A DNA stretch of 64,000 bases from positions 3,534,001-3,598,000 of the forward strand of contig JAYWIR010000016.1 in NCBI GenBank assembly GCA_036172245.1, written 5' to 3'. This DNA is from Raillietiella orientalis (lineage: Eukaryota). The translations under genes were made by a program, and so were the position numbers. The notes under the pieces were generated by a model. It worked only from the letters and a program-made list of their open reading frames with translations, was not told the origin of the DNA and did no database searches. This document shows positions 3,101-6,100 of this stretch, in pieces (the first letter of the stretch is position 1; each line of letters starts with the position of its first letter).

Positions 3101-6100
3101 TGATAATTCATGTCTGAATTATTATCCTATACTATTGTTAAAATCTAATGTTGATTTCAGAGGCACTCCATCCTTTAATTTTGCCCACGATTTGAATTTA
3201 AAATTCTAATGGAAAAACCACTGTGCTTACCAAGCAAGCTTTTTGTTATAAGTACGATTGCATTTGCCAAAATTAATCTCTGTGTTTTAAAGCATCTGTA
3301 ACCATGCAGTATTAGGTTAGTGCGGTCTAACAAAATGAAAATACCTTTTTTCCCATTCTGTGTATTGTGGGGGTTTTTCAAATGTAACAGTAAAATACCT
3401 TTAGGTATGCTTACATTGTTAGAAATATTCTTTGAGGCCCCCAGAAAAATCTCTTGCAGTTTGTCATGCTATGATGTGTTTATGCAGGATATGGTGGTTA
3501 GCATTGGGTGTTAGAAAAGGCTATAAATTATCAGATGATGCAAAGATTGCTGATTTGCATTCCTAAATAAACAGATAATCTCAATGCAGTTTGGAGGTGT
3601 GCTGAATGTAAATAAAGAAATTATGGGAATCCATTTTAGAATGAGCTTATTATGGAAGAACCCCGTCGTCGAACTCAGACTCGTCGATTTGGTAATGATG
3701 AAAACATGGTAGAAATTTCGGATCTCGACAGTTCAAGTGAAAGCGATGAAGAAAGAGCAAAAGGTAATGCTTTGGGTGTTTTATCATCAATTATAAAGGT
3801 TTGTAGGACTTGGACGAAGAACTAGAAGTGGACGGCATGGACGTCGTTCCAGAGGTGCACGCACTGAGGAGGATAGGGATTATGCAATGGAAGAAGGGGA
3901 GGTTGTTTATGGGAAATGGTCACGCAATGATTTTTTCAAAATCGAAAAGGGTCTTTTGACCTTTGGGTTGGTTTAAAAGTTTAAATTACCTTTTTAAGTT
4001 ATTTAATTTTCACATAAATTCAGGTGGGGACGCTGGCAGGAAATTCTTACGATGGGTCAATTTCGCAAGTCTTGGAAAGAAAACGATGCTGCTGATTGTG
4101 CACGAATCATTGTAAGTGATGTTGATCTTAGGTTGATGAGGTGGGGAGGATGCCATTAATGATGATTGTGCCATGCTAATCCAGAGAGTATTTATTACTT
4201 AATGAGCGAGGAAACCATGCCTGAAAAAAACATTGATTGTATTAATTGATTATTGTAGTAATTGTTTATCATCATTGTGGATTTAAGATGATTTATTTTT
4301 TTTTTTATTTCATTTTCCAGCTGCTTTATTGTTTGAACCATTATCATGGCGATGATAAAATCAAAAGTTTCATTTGGGACTTGATAACTCCTGGACCTGA
4401 AGGAGAAGGTAAAGTGACACGCAACCACATGGGTATGTTTGCCTCGTTTGCTTCGATCTAATGATTCGTGCCATTATAGGTTTATCAGCTCCTGTTCCGC
4501 GTGGACGAAAAGGTAAGAAAAAACAAAAAGAGGCTAAGATGATTACTGCTCACATGGAAGAAACTGACTGGTCAAAAGATGAAAAGTACGATCCGGACTT
4601 GTATGTTGATAACAGTTACAGAAAACACTTGAATCGTCATGCAAATAAGTATGGGAAATCACTATTTATAATTAATAGCAACTGATCCCTAGGGTTTTGC
4701 TGCGTGTCCGTATGCTGTATTATATTAAGCAGGAAATTCTGGGAGATCTCGTTGAGCAAATAGCAATGGGAAGACATGCCAGTGATTTGCCGATTTACCC
4801 TCCAACTGTAGATCAACCTCCTACTTTGTGGTGGGATGTGGAAGCTGACAGATCTCTAATTGTTGGTGTTTACAAGCATGGCTACGAGCGGTTTAATCTG
4901 ATGCGGCTTGATTCGCTGTTGTGTTTTCTTAATCGTTGTGGTCCTCCTGATGGAGCTGCATTATTAGCTGAGATGAATGCTGGGTAATTTTTTTTTAGTG
5001 TTATTAATATTTTTGATTTTATCTGCTACCGATTTATAGAAACCTTGAAGAGGAATTTGAAAAATCTGGAGTCTTTGAAGAAGAAGAAGAAGCAGTCAGC
5101 CCACTGGCAGTCTCAGTGTCAGAAGATGTCAAAGCAGGAAGCTATGATGATTTGAAATCTCTGTCAAAAGGAGAAGAATTGGAAATGGGAAAACTCCCAT
5201 TCCCATCACCCTCGGAGATAAACACACGATTGCGCAGATTAATTACTCAGTATCAGCGTTCATTCAAAAAGCAAGAATTAAAACTTGCTGCAAGAGCAAA
5301 GGTATTTTTCTCTCCATATCTCTTTGTATCCCACTTGAACTATTCCCTTCTCTTAGTTTATGCTTGCTCCACTCTTCCTCCTTCAGTCCCTTTTCTTTGC
5401 ATGAATTGTTTTAAAATAGTCCTTACAGCGTTTAGAAAGAAGGGAAAGAATGGAAGCAGTAATACGAGAAAGGGAAAACAAAAAATTGGAGTTGCAGCAG
5501 CGTAGGTGGTCACGTCGAGAAGAAGCTGAATTTTATCGTTGCGTGTCTTCATATGGAGTTGAATTTAATCGGTAAGATTTTTTTTGGTTCTTGATTCAAA
5601 AGCCTTTTTGATTTTTCGTTTTAGGAAGAAGAATCAGTATGATTGGACCCGCTTCCGTCAGCTTTCTCATTTGGAGAGAAAATACGATGATACATTAACA
5701 GAATATTTTCGAGGCTTTTATGCAATGTGTAAGCGCATGTGTGGTATGCGTTTAACAGCAGAGGAAGGTAAGTTGTACCTTGGGAAAAAAAATCCATTTG
5801 AGTTGTGTTTTCTTCAGAGATTCTACAATTGGTGGTAGAGCCAATTTCAGAAGAGAGGGCACGTCGTATACTGGATCGTATAGATCTACTCAGCAAAGTG
5901 CGTGAAGACATTTTACCCCATCCAAAATTAGATGAGCGACTAAGGTTGTGCAAGTCCTCAATGGACATGCCAGACTGGTGGATTCCTGGGAAACACGACA
6001 AAGATCTTTTAATCGGAGTAGCAAAGTTAGTGCGGGACTCACATTACAGTATGCCTCCATGATGACAATTTCAGACACGGATTATGTCGAACCGATTTTT

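Follow-up and report, generated by a model that had tools for sequence, protein, structure and literature searches.

Human U6 small nuclear RNA (snRNA) is ribose-methylated at A53, as stated in PMC5855946. The modification, Am53, is assigned in a table of PMC7960923 to SNORD8 and SNORD9, small nucleolar RNAs (snoRNAs) of the box C/D class, and Table 3 of PMC6466398 gives U6-A53 as the target of SNORD8 (mgU6-53) and SNORD9, with CHD8 as host. These sources confirm what had been given as background in an earlier, sequence-only reading of the locus described here, namely that U6 A53 is methylated and that SNORD8 and SNORD9 reside in CHD8. The locus lies in a stretch of 64,000 nucleotides of Raillietiella orientalis contig JAYWIR010000016.1 (the window, to which coordinates refer unless a locus is named) and consists of a predicted box C/D snoRNA at 4155-4228, within an intron of a kismet-like (CHD7/8) gene. 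Judged from its sequence, it very probably represents a compact and functional snoRNA of the snoU6-53 / mgU6-53 family (SNORD8, SNORD9). The snoRNA itself is a new member of an already described, ordinary family.

Drosophila melanogaster has a box C/D snoRNA of 75 nt, snoRNA:CD66 (= kis-a), with kis as host gene and expression in heads, ovaries and S2R+ cells (supplement of PMC11014333). It is listed as 'orphan' in this 2024 map, which assigns ribosomal RNA (rRNA) targets only. The same RNA, snoCD_02 in kis, had been found from small-RNA tags and gave a Northern band of about 85 nt (Jung et al. 2010; PMC2825236, Table 4). Its likeness to the window element, as described in these tables, is one of size and host, kis being the fly CHD7/8 gene. 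A literature search that left out most subscription journals and FlyBase turned up no paper in which U6 A53 is named as the target of the kismet snoRNA, or in which the pairing of CHD gene and snoRNA is extended to invertebrates. The guide core upstream of D' is also present in yeast snR53, Arabidopsis snoR53Y and Neurospora CD11 (Rfam family RF00338 snoR53, clan CL00080). This family differs from the window element in its annotated target, 18S rRNA (a table in PMC3511168), and in having a host that is not a CHD gene. For CD11, the Neurospora snR53 homologue, a single D' guide has been predicted for both 18S-Am793 and a U6 adenosine, in Neurospora numbering (PMC2780460). Intronic snoRNA locations in general are described in PMC3511168 as unstable over deep time ('constrained drift').

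In tblastn searches with two CHD6-9-type proteins, a 'DNA helicase' of Helobdella and a 'CHD8-like' protein of Pomacea, the host gene gave collinear coding blocks that begin at 179 and reach about 8300, and its C-terminal open reading frame (ORF) matched BRK-domain proteins. The 209-nt intron at 4112-4320, with its RII|LLY junction, could be read directly where it had been placed before. The features of the element and its surroundings, with the basis of each assignment, are as follows.

4022-4111, forward strand: upstream exon of the CHD7/8 (kismet-like) host, RWGRWQEIL...CARII (ORF translation; tblastn with Helobdella and Pomacea CHD proteins)
4112-4320, forward strand: host intron, 209 nt, GTAAGT...TTCCAG (protein residues contiguous across the intron)
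4155-4228, forward strand: predicted box C/D snoRNA, about 72-75 nt, ends deduced (model R1 match at 4153-4230 and RF00377 match at 4154-4205, for which see below)
4159-4165, forward strand: box C, ATGATGA (direct reading; TGATGA core invariant in 13 of 13 relatives, preceding base A, G or C)
4170-4181, forward strand: D' guide GCCATGCTAATC, 12 nt, 4 nt after box C (RF00377 alignment and direct reading)
4182-4185, forward strand: box D', CAGA, non-canonical (CTGA, CAGA or CGGA in relatives)
4186-4200, forward strand: internal hairpin GAGTA-TTTAT-TACTT, 5 bp, between D' and C' (direct reading)
4203-4209, forward strand: degenerate box C', TGAGCGA (in relatives TGAGTTGA, TGAGTTCA and TGCGTTCA; Rfam consensus UGAGUUaAA)
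4210-4220, forward strand: spacer, 11 nt, upstream of box D (earlier a possible second guide; letters not conserved)
4221-4224, forward strand: box D, CTGA, located 96 nt upstream of the 3' splice site (4320 minus 4224; direct reading)
4321-4432, forward strand: downstream exon, starting LLYCLNHY (translation and tblastn; 3' splice position common to 22 of 24 loci)

Both boxes of the general box C/D snoRNA definition are thus present (a RUGAUGA-type box C near the 5' end and CTGA near the 3' end), and box D starts 61 nt downstream of the first base of the TGATGA core (4160), compared with 62-70 nt in relatives. Box C, the 12-nt guide, CAGA and the distance of CTGA from the splice site had all been given correctly in the sequence-only reading. 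The 5-bp hairpin and the C'-like TGAGCGA were absent from it; the hairpin joins the D' and C' boxes, both degenerate, in the position that a covarying 6-bp helix occupies in relatives. When both strands of the window were searched, 128 kb in all, the exact guide 12-mer was found once; with at most one mismatch there were 2 matches, compared with 0.33 on average over 100 shuffles. The second of these, at 45122-45133 on the reverse strand, was considered as another snoRNA and rejected, since box C is absent nearby.

At gathering thresholds, Rfam gave no match in the window. With permissive filters (4227 families over 301 nt around the intron), the top family was RF00377, snoU6-53/MBII-28 (SNORD8/9), at 25.4 bits and an E-value of 0.0015, and it was again the top match over 9.4 kb (E 0.047). 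In the RF00377 alignment, window and consensus both have UGCCAUGCUAAU as guide, at the same distance from D', and the predicted methylated base is therefore the same. The guide GCCATGCTAATC equals the snoU6-53 consensus save for its last base, C instead of A, which gives 12 paired bases compared with 11. Counted upstream from D', the fifth base is T4177. By the register of the family, U6 A53 would fall opposite this fifth base, so that the pairing of T4177 with A53 proposed earlier is in register and its guide/D' spacing is that of the family consensus. Human SNORD8 and SNORD9 (mgU6-53, mgU6-53B) thus share with the window element box C, guide, D', spacing and predicted target nucleotide; their family has a C' of UGAGUU type and, like the window element, an intronic, sense location in a remodeller gene of the CHD6-9 subfamily. 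The window element differs from RF00377 in its length (about 72-75 nt compared with a 110-position model), in the lack of the central insertion and of the CUUCUCa of the consensus 3' half, in a D' box CAGA instead of CUGA, in a terminal stem that is almost absent and in a score below the curated cut-off. The SNORD8/9-type identity claimed in the sequence-only reading is supported by the top family match, the guide and the D' spacing, though at a score under that cut-off.

Metagenome contigs were scanned with a pattern consisting of the box-C core, 2-7 unspecified bases, 11 guide letters and NNNGA, which gave at least 118 loci, 80 of them with 2-kb flanks and others with flanks of 300 nt only. 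RF00377 was found in 17 of 20 representative loci, and 9 of the 20 reached its gathering cut-off of 36 bits (L104 45.7, L023 45.5, L072 44.0, L004 41.9, L020 40.7, L017 39.9, L016 39.8, L007 38.6 and L015 38.1). The window element therefore represents the low-scoring, compact end of a continuous family, and a chain of homology leads from it to relatives that pass the cut-off, among them L017, which occupies the window's own intron position. A covariance model (R1) was built from 13 short-form metagenomic relatives with the window left out. Its sole match in the 64 kb was the full-length interval 4153-4230, at 39 bits and an E-value of about 9e-7. In the alignment of the 13 relatives the TGATGA core, the guide, the G-A of D', the TG-GTT of C' and CTGA are invariant. 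Their 6-bp helix between D' and C' is paired at 93.6% and shows both-side changes at 5 of 6 pairs; its covariation score was reached by none of 500 shuffles, and slid controls were paired at less than 56%.

We propose that the snoRNA would be transcribed within the kismet-like pre-mRNA, bound by the box C/D proteins and, once the intron has been spliced out, freed from it as exonucleases trim the ends. The 12-nt guide would then pair with the conserved U6 segment holding A53, and fibrillarin would 2'-O-methylate A53, the U6 nucleotide opposite the fifth guide base counted upstream from D'. For this locus we infer accumulation of the RNA, assembly of the small nucleolar ribonucleoprotein (snoRNP) and methylation.

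The window element lies, in sense, in an intron of a CHD8-type host. CHD7/8-like exons were sought in the metagenomic loci by tblastn with the translations of the window's own exons. Among the matches listed, which form the basis for all counts of this comparison, such exons were present on the snoRNA strand in 49 of 118 loci and on the opposite strand only in none. By the sequence downstream of the pattern, the 49 loci fall into 15 clusters, and these CHD-positive clusters also take in four loci with 300-nt flanks (L087, L088, L100 and L112). Among the other 69 loci, many have the appearance of chance matches to prokaryote-like sequence, judged from composition and the lack of any box D or stem. 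A tblastn match spanned the codon aligned to 4321 in 24 loci, and AG stood exactly before this codon in 22 of them, L019 and L036 being the exceptions. The 22 loci with the same splice site comprise the window's nearest relatives by exon identity (L017, L101, L022 and L045) and 18 loci of the largest cluster. In them box D and the 3' splice site are 75-118 nt apart, a range that includes the 96 nt of the window. L017, L045 and L101 have orthologous introns of 202-205 nt, compared with 209 nt in the window, and convincing alignment is confined to the snoRNA module.

The source of the largest cluster is taken to be annelid-like, because its exon is closest to a Helobdella robusta protein (80%), followed by mollusc proteins. 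The window itself is arthropod-like, and the labels 'kismet' and 'protostome' are reasonable for it, because the AFG3L2-like m-AAA protease gene that adjoins the host has best matches that are nearly all arthropod: for its 381-aa exon (14359-15501, reverse strand) the best named matches, at 86% identity or less, come from insects, ticks, Daphnia, myriapods and a springtail. Further exons of this gene extend to about 16000. The identical 3' splice site is common to the arthropod-like group of the window and the annelid-like cluster. Conservation in orthologous introns, which had been set beforehand as a test of the proposal, was thus observed, in an annelid-like lineage as well. We consider it probable that guide and CHD7/8-family host form a continuous linkage older than the divergence of protostomes and deuterostomes; this is the best reading of the distribution, well supported and not proven. 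That the two had stayed together since this divergence was proposed in the sequence-only reading, and the proposal fits the 49 sense loci in CHD7/8-like genes; the linkage is not universal. The guide may have moved or been duplicated between introns inside the CHD7/8 gene and may have passed to other hosts in some lineages.

Several observations weigh against a functional family member with a long-standing CHD7/8 host. The RF00377 score is below the 36-bit cut-off, and only the 5' half, box C through D', was aligned. The R1 score is partly circular, as the relatives had been collected with a window-derived pattern, and it is carried mostly by the part that defines this pattern, because a control model built from the 3' halves only (R2) did not recover the 3' half of the window element: over the whole window the site was absent among 8 matches at E<=10, and in the intron alone it scored 1.3 bits. 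A family-like 3' half (C' UGAGUU, CUUCUCa, box D, stem) was not found in the element, which keeps the plan of hairpin, AUGAG and CUGA in proper spacing, while the sequence of this half by itself shows no significant likeness. Both D' (CAGA) and C' (TGAGCGA) are degenerate. Beside boxes C and D only 2 contiguous pairs are present in place of a terminal stem (kink-turn stem I), which has 4-14 bp in most relatives and also 2 bp in L012 and L036. The fold of 4140-4245 was no stabler than shuffles (z = -0.01), and the minimum-free-energy fold uses a stem overlapping box C. As to the host, about nine intron positions are used in the CHD genes among the loci, and the guide also occurs in other host genes, so that its linkage to CHD7/8 is frequent and not universal.

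The alternative that survives best, unlikely as it is, accepts a genuine U6-A53 guide and regards the host as convergent, mobile copies having entered the broadly expressed CHD7/8 gene independently in arthropods, annelids and vertebrates. Such a history would agree with the 'constrained drift' cited above, with the presence of the guide in at least four other host gene families and with the spread of intron positions. It has to account for 15 independent sequence clusters in one gene family, all in sense, and for the 3' splice site that the arthropod-like and annelid-like groups have in common; repeated independent insertion into one gene of thousands is improbable, and intra-gene duplication explains the differing positions more simply, as illustrated by L015 and L016, which are two copies in neighbouring introns on one contig. 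The CHD intron positions found among the loci, in addition to that of the window, were:

upstream of the RWGRW exon: 9 loci
downstream of the exon that matches 968-1120: 5 loci
between 876 and 968, and upstream of 369: L016 and L015, on a single contig
within an exon of the window, near 750: L103
downstream of 349: L054
downstream of about 4978: L023, L070, L084 and L104
between 5772 and 5829: L057
between 4649 and 4721: L111

The annelid-like cluster carries copies in three introns. Two or three U6-53-type copies in separate introns of one CHD7/8-like gene were seen for L015 (471-499) with L016 (2001-2029) and in the cluster L004/L007/L057, an arrangement that resembles human CHD8 with SNORD8 and SNORD9.

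A second alternative, which we regard as quite unlikely, concerns the substrate. The main or an additional target would be 18S rRNA at the yeast snR53 site, and the metazoan U6-53 and the fungal and plant snR53 guides would form one older family. It is raised because of the dual guide of Neurospora CD11 (PMC2780460) together with a weak match of RF00338 snoR53, the second family match of the intron, which has the same guide core and is not significant (17.8 bits, E 8.5). The first and last bases of the guide fit U6. On the 18S sequence as we assume it to be, neither of these two bases fits, which would leave about 10 bp. The CHD-hosted relatives keep the U6-specific 5' G as well, though this base was fixed by the search pattern and is not independent evidence.

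Still less probable, and in our view very unlikely, is a decaying relic in which box C and guide persist and the assembly of a stable snoRNP has been lost. The 2-bp terminal stem, the degenerate D' and C' boxes, the lack of significant similarity between the 3' half and that of the relatives, the fold without structural signal and the Rfam score below threshold would all be expected from a relic. An intact box C, a 12-nt guide, the D' spacing, the 5-bp hairpin and a perfect CTGA at the usual distance of the family would not. Since the module is intact while the remainder of the intron has diverged from its relatives beyond alignment, purifying selection on the snoRNA module is indicated. A replacement copy is absent from the 64-kb window, and the intron length of about 200 nt has been retained as in the relatives. 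Finally, a chance coincidence of motifs in an AT-rich intron, to which the commonness of short box motifs in such DNA and the fold z-score would lend themselves, is effectively refuted by the RF00377 match, the CHD linkage, the R1 match and the shared splice site. The 12-mer is unique in the 128 kb searched, follows a perfect box C at a distance of 4 nt and has the register known from an established guide family; it lies in the orthologue of that family's known host, with conservation in orthologous introns.

A functional compact guide in a long-standing host invites a wider interpretation, which we offer as a tentative one. The pair of mgU6-53 guide and CHD7/8 gene might not only predate the protostome-deuterostome split, it might have survived intron hopping and duplication as an exception to snoRNA mobility, and may have been kept by a shared service to U6; as a corollary, the Drosophila 'orphan' CD66/kis-a could be the fly U6-Am53 guide. 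CHD8 is reportedly a factor that supports U6 transcription, and U6 A53 is the first base of the catalytic AGC triad of U6. The presence of one guide in one chromatin-remodeller family in arthropod-like, annelid-like and, from the literature, vertebrate genomes makes long-term stability of a snoRNA-host pair testable. Such a stable-host case arises in a field where comparative work stresses mobility (PMC3511168), and it suggests a target for an expressed Drosophila snoRNA that was still 'orphan' in the 2024 map (PMC11014333). The host switches, to SMARCC-, CYFIP-, UBA1- and DEAD-box-like genes, allow breadth of expression to be weighed against a functional tie to U6 biogenesis.

These other hosts were identified by Pfam scans of sense-strand ORFs and by an NCBIfam scan. 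A CYFIP-like gene hosts the guide in the L020 cluster (L020/L041/L051), a UBA1-like gene in L035 and a DEAD-box-helicase-like gene in L008, the last with zero similarity to the helicase exon of the window. SMARCC/SWI3-like hosts, with SWIRM, SWIRM-associated and Myb domains, were found in three clusters (L048, L069/L071 and L006). They constitute a second chromatin-remodelling type of host, a curious coincidence. ORFs of PNO1-, ERp29- and acyltransferase-like type occur close to two families that are AT-rich or tandem (L003/L009 and L005/L050). In the non-CHD family of L003/L047 (a single contig), L009, L058, L059 and others, two copies are spaced by 1.5 kb, the terminal stem has 8 bp, TGTGA replaces D', and a PNO1-like KH-domain ORF follows downstream; it may be a tandem snoRNA cluster of another eukaryote.

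The D-box-adjacent GAGGAAACCATGC, put forward in the sequence-only reading as a possible second guide, found no support, as even the nearest relatives do not agree in sequence between C' and box D. A conserved second guide at 4210-4220 was rejected because only CATGC before box D is common to L022 and the window. By eye, pairing of this spacer with the same U6 stretch would reach only 6 bp. The CUUCUCa element between C' and box D, present in the Rfam consensus and in many longer relatives, is lacking in the window. It is located at about 85-93 of the RF00377 consensus and was seen in L020, L023, L035, L100, L111 and others, too far from box D for a standard guide. It is presumably complementary to the U6 bases just 5' of the guide target, and could act as accessory U6 pairing.

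Further observations were made on individual contigs. A search of the ESM Atlas with the L019 ORF returned only generic SNF2 and helicase clusters. On L012, which carries a CHD-like exon, a sub-threshold mir-30-like match was present at 3351-3430, about 1.3 kb downstream of the snoRNA (36.8 bits compared with a cut-off of 50.2). L013 (335-397) and L063 (78-137, oriented coordinates) contain short antisense exon-like fragments upstream of the snoRNA, one with a stop codon, which look like inverted pseudo-exon pieces.

The introns of the host gene had been described as mostly 44-61 nt long. For the neighbours of the snoRNA-bearing intron this is roughly right, the next one measuring 47 nt (4433-4479) and others about 41-58 nt as gaps between tblastn blocks; it does not extend to the whole gene, in which a longer intron than that of 209 nt is present. 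This one, at about 1469-3639, measures about 2.17 kb and far exceeds its neighbours. Protein residues are contiguous across it, and it gave no Rfam match at E<=1. Between the kismet-like coding blocks and the AFG3L2-like gene, the interval 9000-14300 has a G+C content of 47-54%, compared with 33-42% in the gene, and contains numerous overlapping ORFs on both strands as well as an AAT/ATT repeat near 9400-9500.

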